Of a DNA stretch of 64,000 bases, positions 1,689 to 53,494 are shown one piece after another. A program made the position numbers and the translations under genes. Position 1 is the stretch's first letter. Each line of letters starts with the position of its first letter. The DNA is from a virus: the IMG/VR virus record IMGVR_UViG_3300008516_000159; one strand, 5' to 3'. The notes below the pieces were generated by a model. The model searched no databases and was not told the DNA's origin. It worked only from the letters and a program-made list of their open reading frames with translations.

Positions 1689-1745
1689 TCACATATCATC
1701 ACCTTCCTCATTGGTATTCATCGTTGTGAGAGATAAAAATTGCAT
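1689..1745 (-). CDS. possible 18-aa leader peptide MQFLSLTTMNTNEEGDDM
   Basis: Hand translation; AGGA upstream; stop codon overlaps the 5' arm of a hairpin that competes with the terminator. Confidence 0.3.
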   Translation of the reverse strand: MQFLSLTTMNTNEEGDDM

Positions 1746-1814
1746 TTTCTGTTGTTCTATCCTTTGCCTTTATGTATGTCTTATCTTGGTAACTTTCGGC
1801 TAAAACATTAAGAA

Positions 1815-2198: not shown

Positions 2199-2213
2199 GT
2201 TTTTATATATGCC

Positions 2214-3062: not shown

Positions 3063-3331
3063 TTAGTAAGCTCTTTTTTTGCCACTTCTCTTTTTATAAG
3101 TTTCTTCATATTAACCGACTTTCTGTTTGAGCAGATGGTACAGGCGAACGGTATGTTCATTCCGTGAATAGAAATAACAACCTTGGCTGTGTTACTAACC
3201 AACTTTTCTATGGTGTTCGATCCGAAGTTGCTTAGCCTGGTCTTGTAAGATCTCCACGCGTCAGGCTCGCTATAACAGTCAGGGTGTTCCGGACAATCGA
3301 CATGTTCGCAAAAGTCTTTTATATAATCCAT
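3059..3331 (-). CDS. hypothetical Cys-rich protein
   Basis: 90 aa ORF overlapping dam start by ATGA. Confidence 0.65.
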   Translation of the reverse strand: MDYIKDFCEHVDCPEHPDCYSEPDAWRSYKTRLSNFGSNTIEKLVSNTAKVVISIHGMNIPFACTICSNRKSVNMKKLIKREVAKKELTK

Positions 3332-3339
3332 TTGTTCTT

Positions 3340-4236: not shown

Positions 4237-4238
4237 TA

Positions 4239-4655
4239 TTATATTTCCTTTGTATAGATTGTATATACTTTTATTGGTTCATCATTGTTAACATATACAA
4301 ACGTATGTAACGCATTAAACTCCACGGCACACGTCAATACGGCGCTCCTGATTAAAAGGCCGCTCTTCTTGACTATTTTTTCAAACCAATTGGCTACCTC
4401 TTGAACATCCGAATAGTTACGCAAATCACCAAATACATTGATCGTATACTGAGCCATACAGCTTGGGTTAGGATTTTGCCATATGTTAATCTGAACACTT
4501 CCCTCGCTACCGCAAGGCACGTTACACTCGTCCCATTTCTCTTCAGGATCATCGTAGTCAACTGTCTTGAATAAATCGCCAAACAGAGGTTTTGGTATTA
4601 AGCCTCCTAATCCATCAACTCTAATGCTTCCGTTTATGTGTGACCACTGAGACAT
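4239..4655 (-). CDS. hypothetical protein
   Basis: 138 aa ORF abutting neighbours. Confidence 0.75.
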   Translation of the reverse strand: MSQWSHINGSIRVDGLGGLIPKPLFGDLFKTVDYDDPEEKWDECNVPCGSEGSVQINIWQNPNPSCMAQYTINVFGDLRNYSDVQEVANWFEKIVKKSGLLIRSAVLTCAVEFNALHTFVYVNNDEPIKVYTIYTKEI

Positions 4656-4658
4656 ACT

Positions 4659-4907
4659 TTATTCCTTGAGTCGTTTCTTTGCTGTATCTCTCACTATTGT
4701 ATCCATGAGTTCATCAGGCATAAAAAACTCAGAGTTCTCAGGATGGTCGCCGGGGATAGAACGAATAAAATGCCAGCCGCACGAGTTGTCATCGTACCAA
4801 AATCTATAATGGGCGATGCCGCCCGAGTATACTTTGCTGAATTCATATACTTCAGTTTTTTTTACTTGCTCTAAGAATGTTACAGTTTTTATTTCAAGCT
4901 TTGACAT
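4659..4907 (-). CDS. hypothetical protein
   Basis: 82 aa ORF abutting neighbours. Confidence 0.65.
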   Translation of the reverse strand: MSKLEIKTVTFLEQVKKTEVYEFSKVYSGGIAHYRFWYDDNSCGWHFIRSIPGDHPENSEFFMPDELMDTIVRDTAKKRLKE

Positions 4908-4910
4908 GGG

Positions 4911-5276
4911 TTAGTCTGGCACAATCACATGAAATCCATCTTTCGGATCCCATTCGTAGCTCAGCCTTGGATCGAGACTGTTGATTGGGCATCTCCAAAA
5001 ATCAAAGTTAACGTTGTCCGGGCAAAACATCTTGATAGCCTCGTGTAATCCATGAGGACCTTCGCCACCATATCCGATTGAGAAACCGGAAGCACTGTAA
5101 GACGTCTGATCCTCAAAGAAGAACTGACACCGAATATCCATGGTGGTTCCGCCAAGAATTCTCACACCAATTAGTTCAGCCCCGTCGTCTTTGATTTTCT
5201 TGAGGGCATCAATGCTAATGGCCGTTACCCCATCATAATCTGCCCCACGACTTGCGAACTTAAGAATACCATCCAT
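4911..5276 (-). CDS. hypothetical protein
   Basis: 121 aa ORF with AGGAG RBS. Confidence 0.75.
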   Translation of the reverse strand: MDGILKFASRGADYDGVTAISIDALKKIKDDGAELIGVRILGGTTMDIRCQFFFEDQTSYSASGFSIGYGGEGPHGLHEAIKMFCPDNVNFDFWRCPINSLDPRLSYEWDPKDGFHVIVPD

Positions 5277-5288
5277 TTTTCACTCCTG

Positions 5289-5486
5289 TCATCTTTTAAG
5301 TATAATAGCGAAAATAACAACTACTATTATAATAAATGCTACCAATGCCGCGGCAATCCATAAGGGAGAAAATACCCAAATCCAGCGCCAATCGATAACA
5401 CCAGTAAGCTTAAGAACCAAGAACACAACAAACAAAACAGCCGATAATCCTAAACTACGACCGCCTGATGCTGAAGCAGTACTCAT
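5289..5486 (-). CDS. small membrane protein (LKLTGVIDW.W.WV.SPLW type, common in phages)
   Basis: Start adjusted to MSTAS after AGGAG; two hydrophobic segments. Confidence 0.75.
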   Translation of the reverse strand: MSTASASGGRSLGLSAVLFVVFLVLKLTGVIDWRWIWVFSPLWIAAALVAFIIIVVVIFAIILKR

Positions 5487-5536
5487 TTGTTTCTCCTTTC
5501 TTGTTATATATGTTTTATCAGTCCTTATTGTGATGA

Positions 5537-5671
5537 TTATTGCACCCTTTTGCTTACGAGACGCATGATTCCACAACAAATGGCTGCAGTGATCAACGGT
5601 ACCACAATAACTGCCACGTACCAAACCGCAGTATTTGTGGCAAGGTTCCCAAATAGGCTAGTTGTAATCAT
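5537..5671 (-). CDS. small membrane protein, 44 aa
   Basis: Hand translation MITTSLFGNLATNTAVWYVAVIVVPLITAAICCGIMRLVSKRVQ after GGAAGGTGG. Confidence 0.45.
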   Translation of the reverse strand: MITTSLFGNLATNTAVWYVAVIVVPLITAAICCGIMRLVSKRVQ

Positions 5672-5706
5672 TTTGCCACCTTCCCCTACATATTTTTAGG
5701 ATCATT

Positions 5707-5919
5707 TCAACCCAAAGCCTTGCTTATTTCGGGAGTAAATCCACCAAACCCTTTTAGTCTATCAGTAATCAATAGCATTATTTTTGCTTCTCTCTGTAGT
5801 GCACTCTCAAACTCAGAATTCTTTGTGGTATTCATACCGGGCGACGGCAAAAATCTGTACCATCTACACAGCTCCATACGAGTTGCCTTTTGTACTTCTT
5901 CAATAGTCGGATATTCCAT
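5707..5919 (-). CDS. hypothetical protein
   Basis: 70 aa ORF abutting neighbours. Confidence 0.65.
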   Translation of the reverse strand: MEYPTIEEVQKATRMELCRWYRFLPSPGMNTTKNSEFESALQREAKIMLLITDRLKGFGGFTPEISKALG

Positions 5920-6132
5920 TTACTCCACCGATTCAAACAGTTTTTTGCACATCTTGCTATTATAAACAGAAAGAGTTGAGTTAGAAGCTTGCGCGCCGCA
6001 CATATCTATAAGAAGCTGCGACTCGCGCCATCGACATATTGCGCAATTTGGCTTTGTTTTTCTGCGAGGCTTCTTACCGCTCAATAACACTTTAGCGGCC
6101 GCCCTTTTGATTTCTTTACTTTTCACGGTCAT
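5920..6132 (-). CDS. hypothetical protein with CxxC motif
   Basis: 70 aa; N-terminal AAAKVLL motif. Confidence 0.6.
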   Translation of the reverse strand: MTVKSKEIKRAAAKVLLSGKKPRRKTKPNCAICRWRESQLLIDMCGAQASNSTLSVYNSKMCKKLFESVE

Positions 6133-6418
6133 AGAACCCTTCTGTATATTCGGCCGCGCGCCTCAACGCTACAGATTTTCCGCGCTGCAGCCGTTCGTTT
6201 TCAGGTTTGTTTTTATAGTCGCCGTTTAATATGCCTTCGTCTATCGCAGATTTCCATTTATAAAATATGCGTGATAAATCAGACGCGTTTACATAAACGT
6301 CTTTGTCTCGAATCAAAGTACGAACACCAACAAAAGGCCTGTTGTTTTCTTCGGCTTTCTTTTCTTCTTCTTTTAATAATACTTTCGCTGCCTTTTTCTT
6401 AAGCTCGCGGTCCTTCAT
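6116..6418 (-). CDS. hypothetical protein
   Basis: 100 aa; N-terminal AAKVLL motif; GAGGG RBS. Confidence 0.7.
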   Translation of the reverse strand: MKDRELKKKAAKVLLKEEEKKAEENNRPFVGVRTLIRDKDVYVNASDLSRIFYKWKSAIDEGILNGDYKNKPENERLQRGKSVALRRAAEYTEGFYDREK

Positions 6419-7265
6419 TTTCCCTCTTTGAGTTGTATATTTTATAAACTATTCTCTGTTGATTCGGAGAAATATAACCTTTTTTGTTGAGCTGTTCGTA
6501 GACTGATTTAACAAAGTCAGAAGGGTCATGAGCCATTAGAAAGGATAACACCTGAGGAGCTTTTTCTTTCATGATGAGAGACCTGGCATATTCTTCTTGT
6601 TTGTCAGAAATCCTGCCATTCCTGATGAATCTGTCCCGGATATCCCTGATTATATAGTTGCTTCCTGAATACCTGATTAGCCACTTGTATTTTTCGTTCT
6701 GCTTGTCCAATTGTTCCTGGATTCTTTTCGATCTCTCGGCGACTTGCTTGGCAAAGTCCTGAGCTCTTTCAAGTTCTTTGTCAAGTCCAAGATCCAGAAT
6801 ATCGTTGATTTGTTGTTTAGAAAGGATGGCCTTGTTTATTGCAACATCGCGCAACAGATCCTTTGCTTGTTCGCGCATGAAATATTTGATGGTCAACTGT
6901 CGCTTATCTTCTATTGAGAACTTTTCGTAAGATTCTTTATCGATATCAGATCTCATTTCTTTGCGGGCTATCAGGACGGTTTTTCGTATCCTCTTGAGAA
7001 GACCTAGAGCTAAATCGATGTCAACGCCCCTCCCTTGAAAATGGTGAATACACTCAGAACCCACATCGAGCTGCCTATGTGTCTTAAGGTTTTCTATGGT
7101 GAATTGGTATACACAATGCTGATGTCCGCAGAGTTCACAATTGAATGGATAATAACTGGTTTTTATTAGTTTGAACTCATCGGTGGGTGAAGAGGAAATG
7201 TTAGCCAAGCTGATTTCTATTTTTGTTTGAAATGAGCTTGATTTGTATTCTTTATAAAGATCCAT
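6399..7265 (-). CDS. hypothetical protein with N-terminal Zn-binding motif
   Basis: CELCGH..C...VGSECIHH; duplicated C-terminal G.IS..Q motif. Confidence 0.75.
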   Translation of the reverse strand: MDLYKEYKSSSFQTKIEISLANISSSPTDEFKLIKTSYYPFNCELCGHQHCVYQFTIENLKTHRQLDVGSECIHHFQGRGVDIDLALGLLKRIRKTVLIARKEMRSDIDKESYEKFSIEDKRQLTIKYFMREQAKDLLRDVAINKAILSKQQINDILDLGLDKELERAQDFAKQVAERSKRIQEQLDKQNEKYKWLIRYSGSNYIIRDIRDRFIRNGRISDKQEEYARSLIMKEKAPQVLSFLMAHDPSDFVKSVYEQLNKKGYISPNQQRIVYKIYNSKRENEGPRA

Positions 7266-7360
7266 TTTGTTCTCCTTGTATATAATATAACACAGGACCG
7301 TGTATTTGTAAAGCTAATTCGAATATCCTAAACATATTCGAAGGCCGCCTTGAAATCACC

Positions 7361-7546
7361 CTAGGCATAGATTCTATATTTTCGAAGCACATCGTCAGCT
7401 GTACGGTAGGCTCTATCAACATCACACACCACACTTCGTGTCATAGAGCACCATCGAAGATTCTTTGTTACGTCCTTCAAAGCTTCTTCATAATCTGACA
7501 CCTTGTGTTCTAAAATTCGGATCTCTTCTTCAGTCATATCCCCCAC
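7361..7546 (-). CDS. hypothetical coiled-coil protein
   Basis: 61 aa ORF after GAGGAG and ACATATATA motif. Confidence 0.6.
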   Translation of the reverse strand: MGDMTEEEIRILEHKVSDYEEALKDVTKNLRWCSMTRSVVCDVDRAYRTADDVLRKYRIYA

Positions 7547-7576
7547 TCCTCTCGTGTGTTTATATATGTTATATCC

Positions 7577-7924
7577 TTAAAACTCAAAACCTATGCTGAC
7601 GTTGGTAGATAAATATGTATCTGCGGGAAGAGGGAAACTGACGAAATACTCTACCTCTATCAAAAACCAATCCATGAAGATCTTCCCTCCGAAATGGGAT
7701 TCAATATCATAGATATAAAATAAACCTTCCCTTTCGGCGCCGAAAGCCTCCACGCAAAACTCAAGGCCACTATATAAATCAATCTCGCTTCCTACCAAGA
7801 AAGGAAAATTGTAGCCGATCTCTAGGTGAGTGTTGTGTCCAAACGCCCCGCTACCGAAGAAATCGGCCATACTCAGAAGCGGAACAAATACAAACAACAG
7901 AGCGATGATGATTAGCTTTCTCAT
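7577..7924 (-). CDS. exported beta-barrel-like protein B
   Basis: Signal peptide, alternating beta pattern, C-terminal SIGFEF; paralogous to 9150..9539. Confidence 0.7.
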   Translation of the reverse strand: MRKLIIIALLFVFVPLLSMADFFGSGAFGHNTHLEIGYNFPFLVGSEIDLYSGLEFCVEAFGAEREGLFYIYDIESHFGGKIFMDWFLIEVEYFVSFPLPADTYLSTNVSIGFEF

Positions 7925-7966
7925 TTTGAATCCCTTTCTAATATATATTTGATATCCATTGTTTAG

Positions 7967-8503
7967 TCAGTCAATCACATAGGGAAGATCTGAAAGGATC
8001 ATATATCCATTGGCACGGGCCATCGCCATATCATAAGGTATGCTATCTACAATATCCCACCACTCAGCGGTTGCCTTTTCATAAGGGTCAGGACAACTTG
8101 TGGGATCGTAATAATACTCGCCATATTCGCTGATGGCGTGAAAACCTCCTTCGTAAACTTCCAACACTAACATAGGGCACTTCACATCAAAATAATAATA
8201 AACCAAATACATAAATAGAATTGCATGATCTTCACAATCACCAGTACGATCTTCAAGGGTAACGTGTGGAGGTTGCCAGTACTCTGGCATTCCCCACTTG
8301 CTCATATCACTCATATATGAGATATTGAAGTAAACCCACTTGTTTATACTCTCGAAATCTACGGCGACCTCATCGAGATCCGCATCATAATACTTGTGAA
8401 AGTCATCATCCCAAGGGTTTCCGTCCTCCCGTACTTGGGTAACACACCCACATACAGAAAGAAACAGAGACATCGAGATTAAAAGAATAACAAGTTTTCT
8501 CAT
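7967..8503 (-). CDS. transglutaminase-like cysteine protease lipoprotein B (BTLCP-like)
   Basis: Start adjusted to MRKLVILL; lipobox SVCGC; TGDCEDHAI Cys, FHAI His, YDPT Asp. Confidence 0.8.
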   Translation of the reverse strand: MRKLVILLISMSLFLSVCGCVTQVREDGNPWDDDFHKYYDADLDEVAVDFESINKWVYFNISYMSDMSKWGMPEYWQPPHVTLEDRTGDCEDHAILFMYLVYYYFDVKCPMLVLEVYEGGFHAISEYGEYYYDPTSCPDPYEKATAEWWDIVDSIPYDMAMARANGYMILSDLPYVID

Positions 8504-8544
8504 TTTTAAACCTTTCTTGATATATGTTATGTCCATTATTTTTT

Positions 8545-9075
8545 TTACCAATCAAGTATATAGGGAGAGGGAGTATCAGCAAGAATTGAGGCACCCCTAA
8601 CGTACATCATTACTGTATCGAACGATATGCTGTCAATAATTATCCAATCTTCCCCTGACTGTTTATCGTACATAAGGGTCGGATCGTAATAGTAACCATC
8701 ATAATAACTAACAGCGTGTAATCCGTCCCCCCAGTAATCCATAGCTAACAAAGAACACTTTACATCAAAGTAGTAATACATCAGATACATGAACAAAATT
8801 ACATGATCTTCACAGTCACCAGTACCATCCTCCATGGTAAGCTGAGGATGTTGCCAATATTCCGGTATCCCCCACTTTGTTGAATCGCTTACGCCCCTGG
8901 TGTTATCATTAACCCAATTACTAAGGCTTTCGGCATCTGTGGCTATATCGGCAAGATTGGGATCAAAATATTTTAGCCGCTCGTCGTCGTCCTGCCAAAT
9001 GTCGGTTACAAAACCACATCCACATACAGAAAAAAACATGGCCATTAAGATTGAAAGAATAATAAGCTTTTTCAT
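8545..9075 (-). CDS. transglutaminase-like cysteine protease lipoprotein A (BTLCP-like)
   Basis: Lipobox SVCGC; TGDCEDHVI, LHAV, YDPT; paralogous to 7967..8503. Confidence 0.8.
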   Translation of the reverse strand: MKKLIILSILMAMFFSVCGCGFVTDIWQDDDERLKYFDPNLADIATDAESLSNWVNDNTRGVSDSTKWGIPEYWQHPQLTMEDGTGDCEDHVILFMYLMYYYFDVKCSLLAMDYWGDGLHAVSYYDGYYYDPTLMYDKQSGEDWIIIDSISFDTVMMYVRGASILADTPSPYILDW

Positions 9076-9103
9076 TTATAAACCTTTCCTAACCTTTTGT
9101 ATG

Positions 9104-9132
9104 ATTATATCATGGTTAGAAAGGTTTGTAAA
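9104..9132 (-). promoter_or_regulatory. sigma70-like promoter TTTACA-N17-TATAAT
   Basis: Near-consensus hexamers, 17-nt spacer, directly upstream of 8545..9075. Confidence 0.75.
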
Positions 9133-9149
9133 GGTGTTTGTTATATCTA

Positions 9150-9539
9150 TTAAAACTCGAATCCTACACTGACGCTGGTTACATTGTCATTAAAAAGTGG
9201 TTCGATGTCGTAGGTGGTGAGATGTTCTACTTTTACGAAAAAACGATCCAGGAATATCTTTCCACCGAAACTGTAATCCACATTGTAGATGTAAAACAGT
9301 TTATCTCCCGCGGGCTCGACTTCTGGTCCATACATATCAACCCCGAGGCCACCATATAAACCAATCTCGGTTCCTGCCAAGAAAGAAAATTTGTAGCCGA
9401 GCTCGCAATCGGCAAAAAAATCACGCGGTTGAACATTATATCCAAACTCCCCGCTGCCGAAAAAGTCAGCCATACTTATAAACGGAACAAACACGAACAA
9501 CAGAACTACTGCCAACGCTACTAATAGAATCTTCTTCAT
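9150..9539 (-). CDS. exported beta-barrel-like protein A
   Basis: Signal peptide MKKILLVALA, beta pattern, C-terminal SVGFEF. Confidence 0.7.
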   Translation of the reverse strand: MKKILLVALAVVLLFVFVPFISMADFFGSGEFGYNVQPRDFFADCELGYKFSFLAGTEIGLYGGLGVDMYGPEVEPAGDKLFYIYNVDYSFGGKIFLDRFFVKVEHLTTYDIEPLFNDNVTSVSVGFEF

Positions 9540-9563
9540 TTTTAAACCCTTTCTGCCTCAATT

Positions 9564-9881
9564 TTAATATGATACCTGCAATATCCAAATATGACCCGCT
9601 TCCGTTATTGTTAACTCCTCAGGTCCCCACGATAAAGAGCCACTAATCCCTTCTAAAGTGTGCTCTCCGACCGGTACTTCCCATTCAACACATTCGCTTG
9701 CGACAAGAGTGTCCACACATACACCGTTCAAGTGAATATCAATGCTATAGTCTGATTGATTTTCTATCTCGAGCAACCCCATTCCGGGCACCGGCTCTGG
9801 TTCCGGATCGGGTGCGCTTGGGCATCCAACAAGACCCAGCATCAAAACCATCACCAACGCTACAAATAAAATCTTCTTCAT
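9564..9881 (-). CDS. lipoprotein with small beta-sandwich (PEGA-like) domain
   Basis: Lipobox LVGC, Pro/Glu linker, IHLNG...VPVGEHTL pattern. Confidence 0.7.
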   Translation of the reverse strand: MKKILFVALVMVLMLGLVGCPSAPDPEPEPVPGMGLLEIENQSDYSIDIHLNGVCVDTLVASECVEWEVPVGEHTLEGISGSLSWGPEELTITEAGHIWILQVSY

Positions 9882-9896
9882 TTTACTACTCCTTAT

Positions 9897-10280
9897 TTAT
9901 TCATAATCAATAGATAACCACACCGACTCCATAATCCCAGAGACAGAACCAACCCAGCAAGAAGTGTCAGGCAGTTTCACAGATAATAGTAATCTACCAT
10001 CTTTTGGGGCTGCAACAATCAGATAACGCTTTCCCGCGCCGGAGGTTTTTAGCACAGGATACCTCTCTGAAGCGGGGAAAGCCCCTTCCGCGCGGACTTC
10101 ATATACTTTGGTGCCTTCGTTATACATATTTATAAATATACGATAATCGTATTCGGAATAAATCTCAAACTCCCAAACGAAGACCTTTGGCATCGCTGTG
10201 TCTGTTTCCACCGCATCTTGCGCAAAAGCAAAGCTGACTGCCATTACAAGCATCATGGCTACTAGTAAAATCGTCTTCAT
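9897..10280 (-). CDS. exported protein
   Basis: Signal peptide ending AFA-Q. Confidence 0.7.
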   Translation of the reverse strand: MKTILLVAMMLVMAVSFAFAQDAVETDTAMPKVFVWEFEIYSEYDYRIFINMYNEGTKVYEVRAEGAFPASERYPVLKTSGAGKRYLIVAAPKDGRLLLSVKLPDTSCWVGSVSGIMESVWLSIDYE

Positions 10281-10295
10281 TTTTTAACTCCTTAT

Positions 10296-10715
10296 TTATT
10301 CCAAAACTACTTTAGTTACACTCAGAAGTAAAATATTTTCGATCTCGCGAGACTCAGTCATATAATACGATCCATAGTATTGCCCACCGCGGGGAGCAAC
10401 AACCTTATCCGACACAGTCACATCCTGTCGCTCGCACAGTATTAATTGTTTACCCTGGGTATTCATATATGCATAACTATATTCTATGGTCCAACCCACT
10501 ACCACACTTTTGCCCTTGTTAGTTAAAATATAGTCTACTGTGACCCAGTTCTCAACCTGTTTCCAATCTTGTAGTTCAACTTCAACAGGAGACATTATGC
10601 CCTGTTTATTATAAACAACCTCAGGTCTAGAATGATATATGAGCATAATAGATACTGCGCTCATCAGAATAATACCAAACACAACCCAGAAAATATTCTT
10701 ACAAAAATTTTTCAT
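10296..10715 (-). CDS. membrane-anchored beta-rich protein
   Basis: N-terminal TM helix, beta-rich C-terminal domain. Confidence 0.7.
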   Translation of the reverse strand: MKNFCKNIFWVVFGIILMSAVSIMLIYHSRPEVVYNKQGIMSPVEVELQDWKQVENWVTVDYILTNKGKSVVVGWTIEYSYAYMNTQGKQLILCERQDVTVSDKVVAPRGGQYYGSYYMTESREIENILLLSVTKVVLE

Positions 10716-10728
10716 CTTTAAATCCTTT

Positions 10729-11259
10729 CTACCTCAAAATTTTAATATGATACCTGTTGTTATCAAAGTAAAACTGCGCCCCTCCGACGATTTTAAAATC
10801 TGTTACCGGAACCTTGAAAAGAACCAGGCGTTTATCGTCGTGAGCGTATTCTTCCGGCATATGCCATCCCGAAGCGTACGCGTCTTCATTCGGCAGCTGC
10901 TCATGTAGGGTATATGAATCATGGTCGGGTGTTTCTATGATGTATATATCATAGGTCATGGTATCATAATCGCGTAAATACTTGCCGAACACCGTTCGAT
11001 AATCCAAATAATCTTCCTCACCTTCGATAAACATGTCGTTTCGAGGATGAAGCCACACTTTGCAAAAAATAGTATCCCTAATAAACTTCTCGTTATATAT
11101 AGAGTCCTGCCAGGTGTATAAAGCCTTGCCATCCTTGGTACAAAGATTATCCTCTCTGAAACTTTCAAGGTGATGTTTAAGTTTTATTTCGGTTGGGATC
11201 AATCCGCAAGCCATTATCGATCCGCGATTGTGAGTTGGAGATATATGAACTACTTTCAT
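10729..11259 (-). CDS. hypothetical protein, possible ADP-ribosyltransferase fold
   Basis: N-terminal VHISPTHNRGSIMACGLIP resembles the H-x-[ST]...N..SI...GL start of ART-fold proteins. Confidence 0.45.
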   Translation of the reverse strand: MKVVHISPTHNRGSIMACGLIPTEIKLKHHLESFREDNLCTKDGKALYTWQDSIYNEKFIRDTIFCKVWLHPRNDMFIEGEEDYLDYRTVFGKYLRDYDTMTYDIYIIETPDHDSYTLHEQLPNEDAYASGWHMPEEYAHDDKRLVLFKVPVTDFKIVGGAQFYFDNNRYHIKILR

Positions 11260-11278
11260 TTAATTACTCTAAGTGGCT

Positions 11279-11644
11279 CTATTTGCACATTCTACTGTCA
11301 AAACCAACGGTAACAACACCGCCTCCTTTAGTTATCAAGTCAGCGTAGTCTCCCACATATTCAAGCTTTAGCTCAAAGTATCCAAACTCAACAGCAAGTC
11401 CAAAGGTGTAAAGCAACAGTTCGGATTGGAAGCTGAACTCCCCACGATAGTCTGAAAAGTATTCAACACCTCCAAAAAGGTTAAATCTGGCGTCGTCAGC
11501 GTCCAGATATAAACCGGTTTGCATTCCCATACCGTAGATATTATTTTCAATGTCGTAGCTCATTTTTGTTGCGGACCAAGGTTCAACAGCAAGCAACGAG
11601 CCTGGAACGATAACAAGCAACAGTATTAGTAATAGTTTCTTCAT
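11279..11644 (-). CDS. exported beta-barrel-like protein C
   Basis: Start adjusted to MKKLLLIL; signal peptide, beta pattern, ends VTVGFD. Confidence 0.6.
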   Translation of the reverse strand: MKKLLLILLLVIVPGSLLAVEPWSATKMSYDIENNIYGMGMQTGLYLDADDARFNLFGGVEYFSDYRGEFSFQSELLLYTFGLAVEFGYFELKLEYVGDYADLITKGGGVVTVGFDSRMCK

Positions 11645-11667
11645 CTTATTTCTCCTGTAATTGTTTG

Positions 11668-12150
11668 TCAATCCAAAGGAATCAGCGCATATCTTTTATA
11701 CTTGGCGTGATCGTGCGCATCTTTCCCGTTTTTGCTCAAGTCTCTGTATAGTGTTATTATTTTCATATCCGGATACTTTTTCTTGATCTCATTTAAGGCG
11801 GTAGCCTTGTCGTTTCTTCCTAGGAGTTGAGTTTTAAAATAAGCATTTGGTTTTAACTCCATCAGCTTCATCTTACCATTGTAGCCGTCGACTCGGCCGA
11901 AATTAGTTATAACACTAAATCGCTGGTAACCATCTTCGAAATATAGGTTAAAAGTAGTGTGGCAATCTCTACAGGTCAATAACCGTCTGGCGGTGAGATC
12001 GGTTGAGTGACACTCAGGACACTCAATGTAATATAAATCGCCGTCACGATTGACAACAGAGATGTCTTGATGTTGGCCGTAGCCTTCGATTTCTTTGATG
12101 ATATCTAAATCTTGTTTTGTTGATTCTTCATTGTCTTGTGTATCTGACAT
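11668..12150 (-). CDS. Zn-ribbon protein
   Basis: CPECH...CRDCH; AGGAG RBS. Confidence 0.7.
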   Translation of the reverse strand: MSDTQDNEESTKQDLDIIKEIEGYGQHQDISVVNRDGDLYYIECPECHSTDLTARRLLTCRDCHTTFNLYFEDGYQRFSVITNFGRVDGYNGKMKLMELKPNAYFKTQLLGRNDKATALNEIKKKYPDMKIITLYRDLSKNGKDAHDHAKYKRYALIPLD

Positions 12151-12169
12151 GTTAGCTCCTTGAAAATAT

Positions 12170-13486
12170 TTAATCCACTCTTTTAAGCCGCGCTAAAAAA
12201 TGTCTTAATGTTGGAGGACTCGATACAATCTTGAGACCTTTTATTTCGTGCCGCCTCTTGAAAACTTTTTGAACCGCATCAGCAACATAATCCATATGGC
12301 GGTCCGTATAAACTCTCCTTGGAATGGCCAACCTAAGCAGTTCTGTGTTTGTGTTTTCAAAAGCAAGATTCCCCAACCCAACACCTCTTACTCCTGATTC
12401 TATATACAACTCTACAGCCAGAGCTTCAGCAGGAAACTGCTCTCGGGGAATGTGGGTAAAAAACGAAACGGCATCTATGAAAACAGCATGACCTCCAACT
12501 ATAGTTTTAATGCCCACGCTATCTAATCGGTCTCCTAAATATTCGACTTGTCTTACTCGGTCTGCTATATAATCATCGCCCGTCATCTCTTTTAATCCAA
12601 CTGATATTGCCTCAATATCGCGACCAGACATGCCACCATAACTAACGAAGCCTTCGTATAATATCAAGTTAGGCAAGATTTTTTCATAGAGATTTTTATC
12701 TCTCAAAGCGATGAGTCCGCCCATGGATACAATAGCGTCTTTCTTTAAACTAAAGGTACATCCATCTGCGTAAGAGAATTGCTCTTTTATAATTTGCGCT
12801 ATCGTTTTGTCGTTATATTCTCTTTGTTGAACAAAGTAAGCGTTTTCTGCGCATCGAGCAGCATCAAAGAAAACAGGTAGGTTATATTTATCGGCAATAT
12901 TTCTTACTGCGCGCATATTTTGTATTGAAACTGGCCGCCCGCCTCCACTATTATTGGTAATCGTAAGCATAATGAATGGAATTCTGATCGTCTCATAAAA
13001 ATTTATCGTTTGTTCTAACTTGTTTATATCGACATTGCCCCTGAAGGGGTGATTGTCTTCACAATCAATCAAGCAGCTTTTAAAGCTAGCACCAGCGTTC
13101 GCTATGTGTGCAGCTGTTGTATCGAAAGGCTGGTTAAAAAGTATTACATCTCCTTTGTTTACTAAAGCTTTAAAAAGCAGGTGCTCTGCCGCTCGACCTT
13201 GATGACATGGAATTGTGTATTCAAAACCGAGCGTTTCCATAACTACTTTTTTGAGTTTTTCAAAGCTTCGAGATCCTGCATATGATTCGTCTCCGAGCAT
13301 CATTGCGCTCCACTGTCGATCTGACATGGCATTTGTTCCGCTGTCGGTTAAAAGATCGATATAGACATCATCAGATTTCAAGTTAAAGACATTATAATGG
13401 GCTTTTACGATTGCTGCTATTCTTTCGCTTTTGCTCACTAATTTGATGGGCTCTATTACTTTAATCTTCCAGGGTTCTGGTAACAT
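12170..13486 (-). CDS. tnaA: Tryptophanase (beta-eliminating lyase, PLP-dependent)
   Basis: IDLLTDSGT, GDESYAGS, HQGRAAE, FDTT, FDAAR, SLKKD PLP lysine, YGGMSGRD, RLAIPRRVYT, LRHFLARL. Confidence 0.9.
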   Translation of the reverse strand: MLPEPWKIKVIEPIKLVSKSERIAAIVKAHYNVFNLKSDDVYIDLLTDSGTNAMSDRQWSAMMLGDESYAGSRSFEKLKKVVMETLGFEYTIPCHQGRAAEHLLFKALVNKGDVILFNQPFDTTAAHIANAGASFKSCLIDCEDNHPFRGNVDINKLEQTINFYETIRIPFIMLTITNNSGGGRPVSIQNMRAVRNIADKYNLPVFFDAARCAENAYFVQQREYNDKTIAQIIKEQFSYADGCTFSLKKDAIVSMGGLIALRDKNLYEKILPNLILYEGFVSYGGMSGRDIEAISVGLKEMTGDDYIADRVRQVEYLGDRLDSVGIKTIVGGHAVFIDAVSFFTHIPREQFPAEALAVELYIESGVRGVGLGNLAFENTNTELLRLAIPRRVYTDRHMDYVADAVQKVFKRRHEIKGLKIVSSPPTLRHFLARLKRVD

Positions 13487-13565
13487 TGGTATTCAGCTCC
13501 AAATAATGTATCTAGATATATCTATGTCTCAGCCGGTAAGGTTGTTCGGTGAGGAGGTCTTAGGT

Positions 13566-14042
13566 TCATGATGCTTCTCTATTGTGGATTTTATCATGGC
13601 AATCTGCGCAAACTACAACTAGATCCTTCGAAGATTCTTCACCACGAGACCTATAATTTTCATGGTGAACAACCAAAGCCTGTTTCCCACCACACAATTG
13701 ACATTTGTACAATACGCGATGTAGCTCACGCCACCTGATATCATCCCAGTGCTCAGTAAACAAATAATCTTTATAGGGCATTGATTTAAGTAATCTTATA
13801 TTACGTGTTGTTGTTGTGTCGTAGCACATTTGACATAAAGTCATCGAGATGGCTCGTCTGCTCCTGTGGTTACCCCACGTTCTTTCGCTGCAATAATAGA
13901 TTAAATTCCCAGTATTGCCGCAGCGGTTACACCGTGTCTGCTTGGTCGTTTCATTTTTCTGTTTTTCTTGGTGATTAATGACCGCCAGCTTAATGAGCCC
14001 TATAACTACAATTATAATAAATATTACAAAAAGCCCTGCCAT
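13566..14042 (-). CDS. membrane-anchored Zn/HNH-motif protein
   Basis: N-terminal TM, two CxxC pairs, then CQLCG...VVHH.NY...DLVVVCADCHDKIH. Confidence 0.7.
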   Translation of the reverse strand: MAGLFVIFIIIVVIGLIKLAVINHQEKQKNETTKQTRCNRCGNTGNLIYYCSERTWGNHRSRRAISMTLCQMCYDTTTTRNIRLLKSMPYKDYLFTEHWDDIRWRELHRVLYKCQLCGGKQALVVHHENYRSRGEESSKDLVVVCADCHDKIHNREAS

Positions 14043-14096
14043 TATATCCAGCCTTTTATCTTATGTTTGATCAGAGTGACGGCCGCCATGTTTCTT

Positions 14097-14369
14097 TTAT
14101 CCGCAGAAAAAGATATTGGCAATTGTAGCTATCAAAATAATAGCTGTCATTATGGTTATCAATTTTGTGCATTTACACACTGCGTTTGTGCATCTAAGCA
14201 TTTTATCTGTGCACTTGAGCATTGCGTTAGAAATTTTAGCATTGTCGCGGCGATATATTTCATTTAGATAGTGTTTTGTTCCAACTTGTGTGCTTTGTGC
14301 GTGTTCGTCGTGTTTTGATATTAATTGTTCATAAGATAACGATCTAAGATCTTTCAATCTTTCAGACAT
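14097..14369 (-). CDS. hypothetical protein with C-terminal TM
   Basis: 90 aa ORF, GGAG RBS. Confidence 0.65.
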   Translation of the reverse strand: MSERLKDLRSLSYEQLISKHDEHAQSTQVGTKHYLNEIYRRDNAKISNAMLKCTDKMLRCTNAVCKCTKLITIMTAIILIATIANIFFCG

Positions 14370-14418
14370 TAAAAATCTCCTTTTTTTTTATATACCATAA
14401 GGTAAGTTAGAGGCCCCT

Positions 14419-15309
14419 ATGAAATCACTACTTTATATATGCCTTGTTGTTATGCTGGCAATTTTAGTCAGCTGTACCTCCATCCAAACCCAGAACTATA
14501 GCTCTCTGCTTGAGACAGCACAAACCAACGCAGAAATGATCGATAAGATCCTGGAAGAAAACTATAAACTAGAGATTGACATTCTCATAGAAGAAATCGT
14601 ATTAGACGAACGTGATTTGTACGACGTGTTCCTGAACCGCGAAGAGAGTTATATCACCAAATTAGAAACAACAACCCTTATGTTGGAAACCATTTATACG
14701 GCAAGAGTGGCGCTGGCAAACTACAACGCACTTACTATTAATTATATACAACTGTTATCTGCGCTATCTGGGGCTGTGGTAAATCAAGAGAGTTTCACCG
14801 AACTAGCCAAGATTATAGACAACACTTCCGATTCAATAGTGTCTGAGTTACGCGTGGCGTTACCAGCCGAAATCATACCAGTTTTGAGTTTATCCGGAAC
14901 AGAGATAGCCAGGCTGTTGGTAGAGCGGCAACGCAAAAAACTACTGGTAGAAGTCCTAGAAGGCAACCAGCCGGTCATAGAAGCATACAGCTTACAGTGT
15001 ATAAAAATCGTAGATAAGATCGAACTAGGGTTGTATCACACCTACAGCAAGTTGTTCGCCAAACTGGAAGAAGAATTATACAATGAAGAAAGACTGGATG
15101 CCAGGCGGGATCTAATCAATATGATCATCAAACTAAACAACAGATACACCAAAAACGTAGAGGCGCTGAGAATAGTAAAAGAAATATACGCCAGCTTGCC
15201 AGAGGTTCACGCGTCACTTAGTGAGTTGAAATACAACAAAGCCATAAGAGCCTTTGTCAAATACGGATCTCAATTACAAAAAGCATATAACGAAATATCT
15301 GGAGGATAA
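14419..15309 (+). CDS. alpha-helical lipoprotein
   Basis: Lipobox LVSC; 296 aa helical or coiled-coil; opposite strand to surroundings. Confidence 0.75.
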   Translation: MKSLLYICLVVMLAILVSCTSIQTQNYSSLLETAQTNAEMIDKILEENYKLEIDILIEEIVLDERDLYDVFLNREESYITKLETTTLMLETIYTARVALANYNALTINYIQLLSALSGAVVNQESFTELAKIIDNTSDSIVSELRVALPAEIIPVLSLSGTEIARLLVERQRKKLLVEVLEGNQPVIEAYSLQCIKIVDKIELGLYHTYSKLFAKLEEELYNEERLDARRDLINMIIKLNNRYTKNVEALRIVKEIYASLPEVHASLSELKYNKAIRAFVKYGSQLQKAYNEISGG

Positions 15310-15310
15310 A

Positions 15311-15643
15311 GTGTCAGATGATATATTAAACGCCTTACAAACATCCTTGACTGAGATGCGAGCTCAGTACCGCAAGATCCGCGGGAGACCAGAGGCCGCA
15401 GAAGTCAAGCTTAAAATACGAGAGCTCGAAAAACACTTTGAAACGATTCTTCTGTCGGATATGAAGCGCTTGGGCAAGAATACAGAATTAATCGAGAACC
15501 TGAACCTTTTGATTAAAGAAACAAAGCTTGCTGTTGATAAAATGAAAAAGGTCGTAGATAGAGTGGAAAAAGTGGCAAATGTAATTGATAAGATAAATGA
15601 TGTACTGAAAATTGCCGCAGACGTAGCCAGACAGGTTTTATGA
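15311..15643 (+). CDS. alpha-helical partner protein
   Basis: GTG start after GGAGG, coupled to the upstream lipoprotein; amphipathic C-terminal helix. Confidence 0.7.
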   Translation: MSDDILNALQTSLTEMRAQYRKIRGRPEAAEVKLKIRELEKHFETILLSDMKRLGKNTELIENLNLLIKETKLAVDKMKKVVDRVEKVANVIDKINDVLKIAADVARQVL

Positions 15644-15952
15644 TATATCTAACATTTCAAATAAGGCTTCCAAGTGATCTTCTCTGACACTTCCGTTGAA
15701 TAATGTTGTATCCTCACCGTGATCGAACAAAGTAATTATAATAGACCGATGGTGTTCGCGCCAGTCGTCCTCATTGGCAGGTCCAGCATCCCATATTTGA
15801 TAATACCATTCGGAATTTTTAGGGCTAGTGAACCACCAAGTATCAGAATCCTTGGATTCTTCTTTAAACCCTCTTTTCTTTAAAAACGATGTGAACCAAT
15901 ATTCGTGGTCGTCTTTTAGGTAGGCTTTTGCTTTTCCGACTTTATCTTCCAT
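15638..15952 (-). CDS. hypothetical protein
   Basis: 104 aa ORF. Confidence 0.7.
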   Translation of the reverse strand: MEDKVGKAKAYLKDDHEYWFTSFLKKRGFKEESKDSDTWWFTSPKNSEWYYQIWDAGPANEDDWREHHRSIIITLFDHGEDTTLFNGSVREDHLEALFEMLDIS

Positions 15953-16271
15953 GCCAACTGCGGTTCTGGTAATGCTTTTTCCATCTGTCGAATCTTCTTT
16001 GACGTCTCTCTTTATGCTTTTTTTCCGCTTCTCTTATCGCTTTATAATCTATCTTTTTACAAAAAGGACACGATAAATCATCAAAGTCATCGAACAATAT
16101 CATATAGTGTAATTGCATCCTCATCCATCTGCCGCGGTTAGTTATACCTGTTCGTACCGCGTATCGTCCGAACTTTCTTATGGCCCTTTTGTTGGTGCAC
16201 CACGGCCCACTCAAGGACGCATGTTTACAACTTGTTTTATTTTTGTCATGTGGGTTTCTACACTCTTTCAT
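15942..16271 (-). CDS. hypothetical basic Cys-containing protein
   Basis: 109 aa ORF. Confidence 0.65.
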   Translation of the reverse strand: MKECRNPHDKNKTSCKHASLSGPWCTNKRAIRKFGRYAVRTGITNRGRWMRMQLHYMILFDDFDDLSCPFCKKIDYKAIREAEKKHKERRQRRFDRWKKHYQNRSWHGR

Positions 16272-16290
16272 GATATGCCTTGTGTTTATA

Positions 16291-16489
16291 TGGTGGGGCG
16301 AAGTAACAAAGAACCAGAAAAGACTTTATTTGGATTAGTCTTGAATCTTTAGTCTTTCGTGCCGCAATCGATTCTTTGGTTCTGCCTAGTGGCCAGAGGC
16401 CGGTGAGTTTTGAAAACCGTCAACGATTTAAGCCTTCAAGGAGGTATGTCCTCTAAGTAAGACTCTTCTGTGAACTTTGGCCCCGCCCC
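16291..16489 (-). ncRNA. putative structured RNA with long terminal helix and 3' ACCA
   Basis: 5' GGGGCGGGG pairs with 3' CTTCGCCCC-ACCA; further pairing CAAAG/CTTTG and CAGAAGA/TTTTCTG; no gene-like ORF in the interval. Confidence 0.5.
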
Positions 16490-16494
16490 TCGTT

Positions 16495-16929
16495 TTATTC
16501 CAGTTCTGTCTGCCAGTTTATGCTTTGAATTTCACGATCGAGTTTGCGTCTTTCGATTTCAAAAAGTTCGATTTCCTCATTGAGCCTGGTTATATCGTAG
16601 TTCCTTTCATAAACAGGTTCTTCGCGGTACATTGACGAGTGCTCCGACAGCAACGTTTTTCGGCACTGCTTGTAGAAAATCATGATTGAATCGAGAATGC
16701 GAAGCGCGTTGAGTTTTTCGGTTAGATGATCGGCGTTTGCTTTGTCGATCCTGAGGTTAAGGCTCTCGAGCATGGCTTGAAGTTCTTTGTAATCAGCGAA
16801 AAGCAAGTCCATGTCGAACGGAAGCTGAAAGCCCTGACGCGTCACCAGATTGCTTGTGATCTCCTCCTTGATGTTGTTGATCTTTTTTATAAGATCTTTT
16901 CTTTCCATGAGTGCTTCTGAAAGTTTCAT
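16495..16929 (-). CDS. DIP1984-family coiled-coil protein
   Basis: N-terminus MKLSEAL.ERKDL.KKI and C-terminus LD.EIQSINWQTEL typical of the family. Confidence 0.8.
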   Translation of the reverse strand: MKLSEALMERKDLIKKINNIKEEITSNLVTRQGFQLPFDMDLLFADYKELQAMLESLNLRIDKANADHLTEKLNALRILDSIMIFYKQCRKTLLSEHSSMYREEPVYERNYDITRLNEEIELFEIERRKLDREIQSINWQTELE

Positions 16930-16976
16930 ATACTACCTCTTCTTGGTCTGTATAATATATATGTCTCCAGGAGTAT

Positions 16977-17162
16977 TTATTTTTCCTGGCTCTTACGATA
17001 TTTCCTCATTTGTTCAACCGCATGCGGAAAAGAGCGGCACCTCGGACACACCATTCCTTCTTTGAAGAACGACCATCGTTTCTTTTTCTCTTTAAAAGCT
17101 TTTCTATCTACTATTTCCTGATAGCCACAAATCATACAGGTTAAAAAGAACTCAGTCCTCAT
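16977..17162 (-). CDS. small Zn-finger protein
   Basis: CMICG...CPRC. Confidence 0.65.
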   Translation of the reverse strand: MRTEFFLTCMICGYQEIVDRKAFKEKKKRWSFFKEGMVCPRCRSFPHAVEQMRKYRKSQEK

Positions 17163-17778
17163 TTTTAACCTCTAAATGCACAATCAACGCCTTGTGTTTT
17201 TCTTCTTTGTCTTGAACTTCAACTTCTTCAGGTTTCTCGGTGAGATCAAAATACTTTTCACAGACAGATATAAACTCTTTGGGATTTAGTTCATTTCTTC
17301 CTTTTCCGATGAAAACATATATAACGGCTTTTCCGTCGTCATTTAACACTCTTCGAATTTCTTTTAATGACTTGTTGATGTCTGTAGTGTGCAATACAGA
17401 TAAAGAATAAACAAAGTCAAAAGCTTCGTCTTTATATTTTAAATCTTCAGCGTCTCCGGTCCTGAATTTTACCTTGTCCCGAATTCCTTTCGGTTGTTCT
17501 TTAAGATTTTCCTTTGCCATTTCGATAGCTTCTGGAACTATATCTATTCCAACGATTTCGTCCCTGGCGATTGTAGCCAATAAAAACGTATCAACCCCGG
17601 CAGCACAGCCTATTTCTAAAATCCTATCGAATTTGCCGTAATTTTTGACGATATTTTTTGTTAAATTACTCGGCTTTTTTTTAGTCCAATGTTCTTCGCC
17701 ATCATCATAAACCTTCTTCCAGAATTTTTTATCAGATTCATTAAGAACCTCTTTCATTACATCTTTAACTGATTTCAT
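17152..17778 (-). CDS. class I SAM-dependent methyltransferase
   Basis: ILEIGCAAG motif I, GIDI, GDAEDL, FDFVYS...LHT, RRVLNDDG. Confidence 0.88.
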   Translation of the reverse strand: MKSVKDVMKEVLNESDKKFWKKVYDDGEEHWTKKKPSNLTKNIVKNYGKFDRILEIGCAAGVDTFLLATIARDEIVGIDIVPEAIEMAKENLKEQPKGIRDKVKFRTGDAEDLKYKDEAFDFVYSLSVLHTTDINKSLKEIRRVLNDDGKAVIYVFIGKGRNELNPKEFISVCEKYFDLTEKPEEVEVQDKEEKHKALIVHLEVKNED

Positions 17779-17781
17779 AGT

Positions 17782-19014
17782 TCACCTCTTCTCGCTGTCT
17801 GTGCTTTCGTCATTTTTGTTTGTATTCTTTTTCGGCTTTACGCCATCTTTCTCGGGTGCCGATTCAGCTGGAGGCTCTGGCGCTTCTTCGGTTTTTGTCT
17901 CGATAGGTTGTTCTGCTGTGGCTTTATCCAGCGACGCTTGAATAATATTTAAAAACTCATCGCCGCCCTTGACACAAAACGTAATAATATCATCTTCCCG
18001 GAACTTGCCTGATTTATGAAACTTTCTTACAGCCTTATCTATTTCTGGATAATGCCAGGCTTTTATCGTCCAGCTGCCTGTTGATTTCTTTGGAACTCTT
18101 TTTTCTTTGAGTTGCTCTTCCAGTTCTTTCGAGGCAGGTATGATGATTTCATAATCTTTCAGTATATTAAATAAACCAGAATAAGGGTCCAATCCATGGG
18201 ACATGTCGAAAAGAAAGCTCATTTGCTTACCAAACGTGCCCATTCTGGACTTGATGATCTTAGCCCTGAGACCGACAACACTAACACCTTTGGCAGATTT
18301 GTCTATCTCGAACAAATCTTTGTCGAACGATAACTCCACTGTCAAAGATGGGGCAAACAACATAATAGTACCGCCGCCAACAACCTTTTTGGGACCATAT
18401 AAATCCATTGATTGCGTATAATGCGCCGTCATGAGCAGACACATATTCATTTTTTGGATTTTCCGTGCGTAAGTTCTGAAATATTCTCTGACCTGTTTGG
18501 CTTTTGCACCCATGTCAGAGCCCTTTGCTGGGTTGATTTCTTTCTCAGTCGAGATCATTGACATAGAGTCAATAACCATTAGAACTTTCTTGTTGGATTG
18601 ATTCTTTTCGATGATATCGATAACCTTGCCCATTTTAGCCTTGAGTTCGTCCATGATATCGACAGGCGAATATAGAATTTTGTTCGGGTCGGCACCAATA
18701 AACTTCGCAAAATTTGCATCTGCGCCGCCACCTTCTGCGTCCAAATATATAATCAAATCAATGTTTGGATCTCTCATACAAGAGAGAACCATGGCTGTTT
18801 TACCTGTACTCGGATCTCCAACAAAACAAACAGATCTACCAGTTGGCAGACCCTTAAATAAACTCTTGGAACATATCCAGTTTAACGCATAATTAGATGT
18901 GCTGATCCAACCAGGTATTTGACCGTACTTTTTATCTTCACCGAATACAACCAGAGGATTTTCTGGGTAATCGGCCTTGAAGCTTTTTACCAACTCTTTC
19001 GTAAGGGTATCCAT
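17782..19014 (-). CDS. recA: RecA/UvsX-like recombinase
   Basis: ISTSNYALNW, GLPTGR, Walker A GDPSTGKT, LDAEG, Walker B MVIDS, GGG loop. Confidence 0.9.
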   Translation of the reverse strand: MDTLTKELVKSFKADYPENPLVVFGEDKKYGQIPGWISTSNYALNWICSKSLFKGLPTGRSVCFVGDPSTGKTAMVLSCMRDPNIDLIIYLDAEGGGADANFAKFIGADPNKILYSPVDIMDELKAKMGKVIDIIEKNQSNKKVLMVIDSMSMISTEKEINPAKGSDMGAKAKQVREYFRTYARKIQKMNMCLLMTAHYTQSMDLYGPKKVVGGGTIMLFAPSLTVELSFDKDLFEIDKSAKGVSVVGLRAKIIKSRMGTFGKQMSFLFDMSHGLDPYSGLFNILKDYEIIIPASKELEEQLKEKRVPKKSTGSWTIKAWHYPEIDKAVRKFHKSGKFREDDIITFCVKGGDEFLNIIQASLDKATAEQPIETKTEEAPEPPAESAPEKDGVKPKKNTNKNDESTDSEKR

Positions 19015-19055
19015 ATAGGTAATGCTCCTAACTAGGCTTTTATACTATATATGTT

Positions 19056-19328
19056 TTATACTAGTGGCGCTAATGTATTTAAGGCGGCCCAAATATTCTT
19101 GAGCTCCTTGGCAACTTCACGCTTGAACTGCTTGGGCGAACCCTTGTGTTCGGCAATACGAGTTTCTATTCTATCGCACGCCTTCTGGAGGTAATCAACC
19201 CTCACCCCTTTATCGTACGGTACCGCTCCGCGGATGTTACGTAACTTGTTTCTCATTATCTTCAACCTCTGTTTATATAGTTGGATGTTTCTTGGGATCT
19301 TCAACAAACTCTCCCTCCCCAGAATCAA
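19056..19328 (-). CDS. hypothetical protein (start uncertain)
   Basis: ORF overlapping the def 3' end. Confidence 0.5.
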   Translation of the reverse strand: MILGRESLLKIPRNIQLYKQRLKIMRNKLRNIRGAVPYDKGVRVDYLQKACDRIETRIAEHKGSPKQFKREVAKELKNIWAALNTLAPLV

Positions 19329-43289: not shown

Positions 43290-43387
43290 GAATAACTAAA
43301 CAGTAGACAGGCAGGTAGAAAATAGATAGTAAAAAGGAAGAAAAATATTACTCAAGTATTAATACTGGTTAACTGGGCGCTTATAAA

Positions 43388-44068: not shown

Positions 44069-44088
44069 CCGCTACATATATATACAGG

Positions 44089-45921: not shown

Positions 45922-45923
45922 AC

Positions 45924-53488: not shown

Positions 53489-53494
53489 TCGACA

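Follow-up and report, generated by a model that had tools for sequence, protein, structure and literature searches.

The stretch of DNA analysed here, which we call the window (64,000 nucleotides of the IMG/VR virus record IMGVR_UViG_3300008516_000159), encodes at 12170-13486, on the minus strand, a protein of 438 amino acids (aa) that resembles the pyridoxal phosphate (PLP)-dependent tryptophan indole-lyases, or tryptophanases (TnaA), of bacteria. This gene, referred to below as tnaA, and its possible role in the phage that carries it are the subject of our report. According to the list of open reading frames (ORFs), its 438 codons run without interruption from an ATG at 13486, and since an in-frame TGA, read directly in the sequence, stands three codons further 5', this ATG is the first possible start. 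The spacer of 79 nt that precedes the gene holds neither a start codon nor a small ORF, again by direct reading, so that a TnaC-like leader is absent, as a preliminary description of this DNA had stated. No tnaB-like permease gene adjoins tnaA, whose neighbours encode an HNH endonuclease and a zinc-ribbon protein; tnaA and these neighbours lie on one strand, and 19 nt separate the tnaA stop codon from the start of the zinc-ribbon gene, which is led by AGGAG.

The window encodes a tail sheath, a portal, a large terminase, a UvsX-like recombinase, an SbcC-like nuclease and a ribonucleotide reductase, with hallmark genes on both sides of tnaA, together with a Dam methylase, a thymidylate-synthase-like protein and a peptide deformylase. 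Four public runs contain the stretch; they belong to a single study and represent two sediment samples. For the likely source sample, two separately assembled Logan contigs of 13.4 and 15.0 kb run through the entire island in which tnaA lies; for the second sample, at 3-6x depth, one contig (12081-13110) crosses the downstream junction of tnaA and another (12881-13585) the upstream one, with 100% identity to the window. The bridging contigs have neither joints nor loose ends at the borders of the gene. The exact TnaA protein is recorded on two contigs in the protein collection, the longer of which, that of the T4-like myophage, measures 191,071 bp; exact-peptide scans of IMG/VR and the JGI metagenomes missed the window's own contig. 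The composition of tnaA follows that of the phage, with a GC content of 40.1% against 41.2% and a codon adaptation index (CAI) of 0.781 against 0.785 +/- 0.019 for 39 phage genes. Because contigs from two samples bridge both junctions and the codon usage matches that of the phage, tnaA is not an assembly chimera; it is a true part of the phage genome and, by its location, a phage auxiliary metabolic gene (AMG). The preliminary description had placed the gene among phage genes and had named misassembly at the two junctions as the point to verify: the hallmark genes on either side and the phage-like codon use bear out the placement, and the contigs from the two samples span both junctions without a mismatch.

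The protein matches the Pfam family Beta_elim_lyase (PF01212) with an E-value of 5.6e-71 and 239.6 bits, against a cut-off of 27, over positions 1-287 of the 288 in the profile (residues 44-403). The NCBIfam model NF009709 (PRK13238), which describes the subfamily of tryptophanases and tyrosine phenol-lyases (TPLs), covers residues 2-437 and scores 619 bits, where 285 would suffice. The solved structure that matches best by sequence is that of the tryptophanase of Bacteroides thetaiotaomicron (8sbg, E-value of 1e-144), followed by TPLs and by the tryptophanases of E. coli and Proteus. An AlphaFold2 model built from 55 homologues has a mean confidence score (pLDDT) of 89.2 and a predicted TM-score (pTM) of 0.87, and it superposes with a TM-score (TM) of 0.95 on holo 8sbg and of 0.94 on the E. 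coli and Proteus tryptophanases.

Functional positions were read from an alignment of 212 relatives that came from a protein search, named genomes and viral contigs, and that included E. coli K-12 TnaA, in a copy taken from a contaminated phage record (L002, see below). All of the catalytic positions, which are invariant in the alignment, are kept in the phage protein: Y69, R98, N179, D208, R211, K248/K249, R385 and F430 correspond to Y74, R103, N198, D227, R230, K269/K270, R419 and F464 in the E. coli numbering, K249 being the PLP lysine (E. coli K270) beside K248. The residues associated with specificity, D122, H429, L371 and V369, occupy the sites of E. coli D137, H463, I396 and V394 and are of the tryptophanase type. 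D122 belongs to the motif FDTT (residues 121-124) and aligns with E. coli D137 and TPL T124, and H429 belongs to LRHF (residues 427-430) and aligns with E. coli H463 and TPL F448; the pocket residues F121, F430 and Y69 are also retained. At these sites the family splits without exception, with Asp, His and a hydrophobic residue at 396 in 158 of the 212 relatives and Thr, Phe and Arg in 54, and the fourth site of these TPL-type sequences is Met in 53 and Val in one. The titles of two PDB entries, "F448H" and "M379A mutant tyrosine phenol-lyase", confirm the identity of the specificity positions. Of the 78 columns that do not vary in 53 relatives, the phage protein matches 75; it departs from the others by a K to R and a Q to R change and one deleted Pro. 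Its DAARCAEN motif has RC as in TPL, versus RF in E. coli and Bacteroides.

Judged by these residues, the phage protein is an intact tryptophanase-type lyase. The preliminary description had taken FDTT and LRHF for the Asp and His of tryptophanases and not for the Thr124 and Phe448 of TPL, a reading that the perfect co-variation of the D122, H429 and L371 positions in the 212 relatives strengthens, and it had called the 438-aa PLP lyase full-length and intact, with which the family models passed, the uninterrupted frame and the retained catalytic residues agree. With a probability of about three in four, we consider tnaA a genuine phage gene for a captured, catalytically intact tryptophanase that most likely cleaves L-tryptophan during infection. 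The chemistry of the family is the conversion of L-tryptophan to indole, pyruvate and ammonium, and since every catalytic and pocket residue is in place, we take this to be the reaction of the phage enzyme, which in the infected cell would split L-tryptophan to these three products. Known tryptophanases also cleave cysteine and serine and catalyse beta-replacement, and by analogy the phage enzyme probably cleaves cysteine and serine too. It is from sequence that we infer the catalytic activity, the substrate and the purpose of the enzyme.

The loop that follows G372 (LAFENTNTE) has 10 residues, versus 18 to 20 in 199 of the 212 relatives. The shortening near the substrate site that the preliminary description had pointed out is thus real, but it is not a peculiarity of the phage, since Atribacterota and other cellular homologues have it in common. 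The same deletion is found in eight relatives, namely P0002, an Atribacterota group (P0003, P0005, P0014, P0121, P0122 and the genome locus L092) and P0051, and the loop of a second viral tnaA lineage, described below, is shorter by 6 residues. These short-loop groups do not stand together on the tree, and a single short-loop clade is weakly rejected (p-value of the approximately unbiased (AU) test 0.0235, for a group defined after the tree was seen), which suggests that the loop is dispensable and has been lost more than once. Two further deletions, of 4 aa after C141 and of 2 aa after I329, occur only in the phage protein among the 212.

The nearest homologue of the phage protein, P0002, is 71-72% identical and lies on a 23.6-kb ENA contig, which did not turn up in homologue searches with two neighbouring phage genes. 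The next nearest, at about 60% identity, belong to Dehalococcoidia, Atribacterota, Spirochaetota, Desulfobacterota and Paraburkholderia. A maximum-likelihood tree with the TPL-type sequences as its root joins the phage protein and P0002 in a pair (support 100) on a stem of 0.3, and the pair is nested in a clade of 47 alignment rows (support 100) made up of sediment-anaerobe lineages and separate from the Bacteroidales and E. coli-type tryptophanases. A T4-like phage of anoxic marine sediment would thus have captured its tryptophanase from a bacterial lineage related to those of the Atribacterota and Dehalococcoidia, and the gene would now reside in a hypervariable accessory island.

IMG/VR holds one close relative of the phage (L171, 189 kb), whose UvsX is 66-79% identical. 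The gene order of the window and of this relative is conserved from 26831 down to 14419 and again at 10729-11259; the 3.1-kb island between the conserved parts contains the 90-aa ORF, the HNH endonuclease, tnaA, the zinc-ribbon protein and the signal-peptide protein (Table 1). In L171 the counterpart of the island is 5.1 kb long and carries an N6 DNA methylase and a MamI-type restriction enzyme, and tnaA was not found anywhere in the L171 record, which is estimated to be 79% complete. Because the relative has other genes at this site and no tnaA, we regard tnaA as cargo specific to its lineage, in an island that can be exchanged. A search for direct or inverted repeats flanking the island, which could mark a transposition, found none, there is no Rfam match in 10500-14600, and the T4 late-promoter motif TATAAATA shows no enrichment, with 7 copies versus 4.4 expected. 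The zinc-ribbon protein has no relative in IMG/VR, L171 included, and the 176-aa gene that bounds the island has eleven homologues, one of them on the 189-kb relative.

Table 1. The tnaA gene, its island and the conserved genes on either side (coordinates are those of the window).
Feature	Position	Strand	Basis
Conserved 176-aa phage gene bounding the island	10729..11259	-	58.5% identical to L171 20568-21095
130-aa protein with signal-peptide-like N-terminus, last island gene	11279..11671	-	ORF list and translation; no family match; absent from L171
160-aa zinc-ribbon protein, 19 nt downstream of tnaA	11668..12150	-	AGGAG ribosome-binding site (RBS); weak zinc-ribbon Pfam matches
tnaA-like gene, 438-aa PLP-dependent beta-eliminating lyase of the tryptophan indole-lyase type	12170..13486	-	Pfam, NCBIfam, AlphaFold2 model, residues
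Spacer upstream of tnaA, 79 nt	13487..13565	-	GGAG RBS at 13497-13500, 10 nt before the ATG
158-aa HNH endonuclease, directly upstream of tnaA	13566..14042	-	Pfam HNH 3.2e-05; PHROG HNH families down to 8.8e-10
First island gene, a 90-aa ORF of unknown function	14097..14369	-	ORF list; no Pfam match; no L171 counterpart
Conserved 296-aa phage gene bounding the island on the other side	14419..15309	+	49.8% identical to L171 14587-15462

Within the island, the HNH endonuclease has a strongly hydrophobic N-terminus (about residues 3-22) that resembles a transmembrane segment, and several CxxC pairs, which is unusual for a free-standing HNH protein of the homing type. The same variable slot of L171 (15475-20380) encodes a 690-aa N6 DNA methylase, a MamI-type restriction endonuclease and a fragment of a second methylase, that is, a phage-borne restriction-modification system. 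Elsewhere in L171, at 10495-11032, an insert of about 536 nt breaks UvsX after residue 165; it opens like a Hint domain or intein (Cys, then ...TPNHRLLV...), continues with a stop and a change of frame, has no Rfam match and may be a degenerate or split intein. Away from the island, the window has on its minus strand two adjacent paralogues (7967-8551 and 8545-9075) with weak matches to Peptidase_C93, the transglutaminase-like cysteine proteases (E-values of 7e-06 and 7e-05, below the gathering score), and two tRNA-Glu genes at 253-324 and 1264-1335, with the anticodons TTC and CTC.

The preliminary description knew of no characterised phage TnaA. Our literature searches likewise found no paper on a phage tryptophanase, but the gene is not unique to this phage, since a second T4-like group and two giant-virus contigs in IMG/VR also carry tnaA. 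A profile scan gave eight tnaA loci in that database. The second T4-like group (L083, L084, L085, L087 and L090; 32-34% GC) has tnaA sequences 49-52% identical to that of the window. In L083 (272-2192), tnaA is accompanied by panD and lies 3 kb from the genes for the gp45 clamp and the gp44 clamp loader; the 96.7-kb contig behind L087 (G005) has, besides tnaA, genes for TerL, a tail sheath, gp44 and a UvsX-like protein; and in L090 (8004-10357) a tail sheath, a malate dehydrogenase and a short-chain dehydrogenase/reductase (SDR) precede tnaA at the end of the contig. L084 and L087 each have a large island of host-like metabolic genes (about 1700-19200) with tnaA, panD, a lipase, a thiamine pyrophosphate (TPP)-dependent enzyme like indolepyruvate decarboxylase, Prs, a quinone-type dihydroorotate dehydrogenase (DHODH) and a FadE-type acyl-CoA dehydrogenase, and a phage-type peptidase adjoins the island on the L087 contig. 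The idea that L084 and L087 are bacterial DNA was dropped after gp45/gp44, TerL, the sheath and the phage peptidase had been found on the contigs, although some room is left for a host-junction artefact, since in these two the distance from tnaA to most hallmark genes exceeds 40 kb. L083 and L087 have only a 2.1-kb tnaA-panD piece in common (86% nucleotide identity) and unrelated flanks, which suggests that tnaA-panD is a cassette moving among related phages. On the tree, this second viral lineage branches apart from the gene of the window, beside a Thermoflexales sequence, and the AU test places a single origin of the two phage lineages just short of rejection (p 0.057).

The giant-virus loci, L086 (9995-11413) and L088 (4789-6156), encode full-length tryptophanases on contigs of metagenome-assembled genomes (MAGs) with 19% GC; that of L086 reaches 685 bits on the TnaA model TIGR02617, and an EF-Tu-like GTPase and a GDP-mannose dehydratase are encoded close to it. 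L089 was rejected as a case of phage tnaA, being a lambdoid prophage with the host gene at its edge. Three tnaA matches in the GenBank phage collection were also set aside as artefacts: in the Campylobacter phages A11a and A18a (MG065691.1 and MG065686.1, both UNVERIFIED), the gene belongs to contaminating E. coli K-12 DNA with the order mnmE-tnaA-tnaB-mdtL, an IS1 and 100% identity (43374-60768 of MG065691.1 in L002), and MT836576, which has AcrB, OEP and Ddl, is a scaffold of bacterial and not of phage DNA. The viral structure library BFVD contains no tryptophanase or TPL, its best matches being NifS-like and aminotransferase folds with at most 18% identity. The tnaA gene is rare among viral contigs, and what the window presents is a well-known enzyme family in a phage setting for which we found no published description.

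Several of our observations weigh against a functional tryptophanase in this phage. The protein does not reach the cut-offs of the TnaA equivalog models TIGR02617 (479.6 < 825.8) and NF053783 (545.6 < 750), which centre on gammaproteobacterial and other lineages from which its clade is distant. None of the PDB matches falls in its 47-row clade, and the nearest enzyme with a solved structure is 52% identical; the substrate is therefore assigned from the signature residues. The deletion in the surface loop, of 9-10 aa, begins just past the strand that bears the pocket residues V369 and L371, and the three deletions together make the phage protein the shortest of the 212 relatives. The GC content at third codon positions (GC3) of tnaA, 0.349, is about 2 standard deviations below that of the phage (0.421 +/- 0.035), and it falls inside the range of the Atribacterota homologues (0.25-0.36). 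Finally, no RNA run is listed among the public runs that hold the stretch.

Part of these observations would also be expected if the enzyme were active and yet not mainly a tryptophanase, acting instead as a cysteine desulfhydrase or a serine dehydratase, on another beta-substituted aromatic amino acid, or in reverse, in the synthesis of tryptophan from indole. The scores below both equivalog cut-offs, to which that of the TPL model TIGR02618 can be added (518.8 < 720.7), the clade without a solved structure, the TPL-like RC of the DAARCAEN motif, the shortened loop directly after the pocket strand and the known breadth of tryptophanases towards cysteine, serine and beta-replacement all point that way. 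The Asp, His, Leu and Val of the pocket are nevertheless of the tryptophan type, with a clean co-variation in the relatives, the aromatic residues F121, F430 and Y69 are kept, and the cellular lineages with the same loop deletion preserve the same signature, so we judge a different main substrate to be unlikely, if the most serious competitor of the tryptophanase reading.

It is improbable, in our estimation, that tnaA is a recently captured passenger without benefit, a neutral cargo of the island that was perhaps spread by the HNH endonuclease and is heading for loss. Its absence from the closest syntenic relative, the replaceable island with an adjoining HNH gene and the GC3 somewhat off the phage mean are what such a passenger would display; in contrast, the frame is intact despite a long branch (0.3 + 0.23 substitutions per site, counted from the node at which cellular relatives join), the family-invariant residues are almost all kept, the codon adaptation equals that of the phage genes, and a tnaA of another lineage is present on further T4-like contigs, with the AU result for a single origin given above. 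That the gene is a chimera or a host fragment misjoined into the phage contig, a caveat of the preliminary description for which the metagenomic source and the single study behind all the runs may be invoked, is highly improbable given the assemblies of four runs from two samples that cover it, its phage-like composition and codon use, and the phage-type small genes that lie within 100 nt on both sides with matching strand and RBS.

If tnaA encodes an active tryptophanase, two purposes can be proposed, and they seem to us about equally likely: the supply of pyruvate and ammonium to an energy-limited host, and the release of indole, which would act on membrane potential, cell division and receptor expression. 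A supply of pyruvate and ammonia and a signalling role of indole had both been put forward as inference in the preliminary description. The supply role fits the second viral lineage, whose tnaA sits among central-metabolism genes such as those for a TPP-dependent enzyme like keto-acid decarboxylases and for malate dehydrogenase. As for indole, it is among the most widely used bacterial signals, with effects on dormancy, biofilms, membrane potential, division and the expression of phage receptors. An effect of tryptophan and indole on the adsorption of T4 was reportedly described by Delbrueck in 1948 and by Kanner and Kozloff in 1964. It is a classical finding that tryptophan activates the adsorption of T4 and that indole inhibits it (PMC9137617); indole also makes Pseudomonas aeruginosa resist a pilus-dependent phage (PMC9927445), and indole is a proton ionophore that blocks the formation of the FtsZ ring (PMC3793866). 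The Rcd RNA of plasmid ColE1 raises the tryptophanase activity of the host, and the resulting indole stops growth and division (PMC4393325).

By analogy, one may speculate that the phage makes indole as a signal of its own and not for food, in which case tnaA would be a virus-encoded enzyme of small-molecule signalling, a proposal to which we give little credit at present. Indole leaving the infected cell could hold back the adsorption of progeny or of rival virions to infected or lysed cells, it could lower receptor expression in neighbouring cells, and it could freeze the division and the membrane potential of the host, as ColE1 does through Rcd and TnaA.

Our claim is a modest one, since tryptophanases are a very familiar enzyme family and the role of this one in the phage is something that we infer. 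Should phages have a tryptophanase of their own, viruses could be driving some of the indole production in sediments and perhaps elsewhere; infection would alter the behaviour of neighbouring cells besides that of the infected one; and the catabolism of amino acids to pyruvate would join the auxiliary metabolism of phages in anoxic sediments. The phage enzyme is also a compact natural variant, of 438 aa with three trimmed loops, of a family with biotechnological uses.

When compared with known systems, the ColE1 plasmid is a precedent for a parasite profiting from indole, its Rcd RNA making it a mobile element that raises indole output. The difference lies in the means: ColE1 activates the enzyme of the host through a small RNA, whereas the phage would bring the enzyme itself.

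The TPLs of Citrobacter freundii and Erwinia herbicola (2ez1 and 1c7g) belong to the same subfamily and have the same fold as the phage protein, with 43-45% identity and a TM of 0.92-0.95, and they share with it the RC reading of the DAxRCxEN motif. They differ at the specificity positions, where TPL has Thr124, Phe448, Arg381 and Met379 and the phage protein has Asp, His, Leu and Val. The bacterial tryptophanases (2c44 and 4w4h from E. coli, 1ax4 from Proteus vulgaris and 8sbg from B. thetaiotaomicron) also have the same fold, with a TM of 0.94-0.95 and 42-52% identity, and they have in common with the phage protein the PLP lysine pair, the general acid Tyr, the carboxylate-binding Arg and a pocket of the Asp137/His463/Ile396/Val394 type. 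They are 456-471 aa long, whereas the phage protein, with its three deletions, has 438 aa, and the enterobacterial tna operon comprises a TnaC leader and a TnaB permease, both of which the phage locus lacks. The bacterial enzymes are encoded by cells and the copy described here by a lytic-type T4-like phage, in an arrangement that recalls the AMGs in the hypervariable islands of such phages (for example Prs, PyrD and PanD on L084 and L087): there too, a host-derived enzyme stands among phage genes, as cargo that some members of a group carry and that others have replaced.

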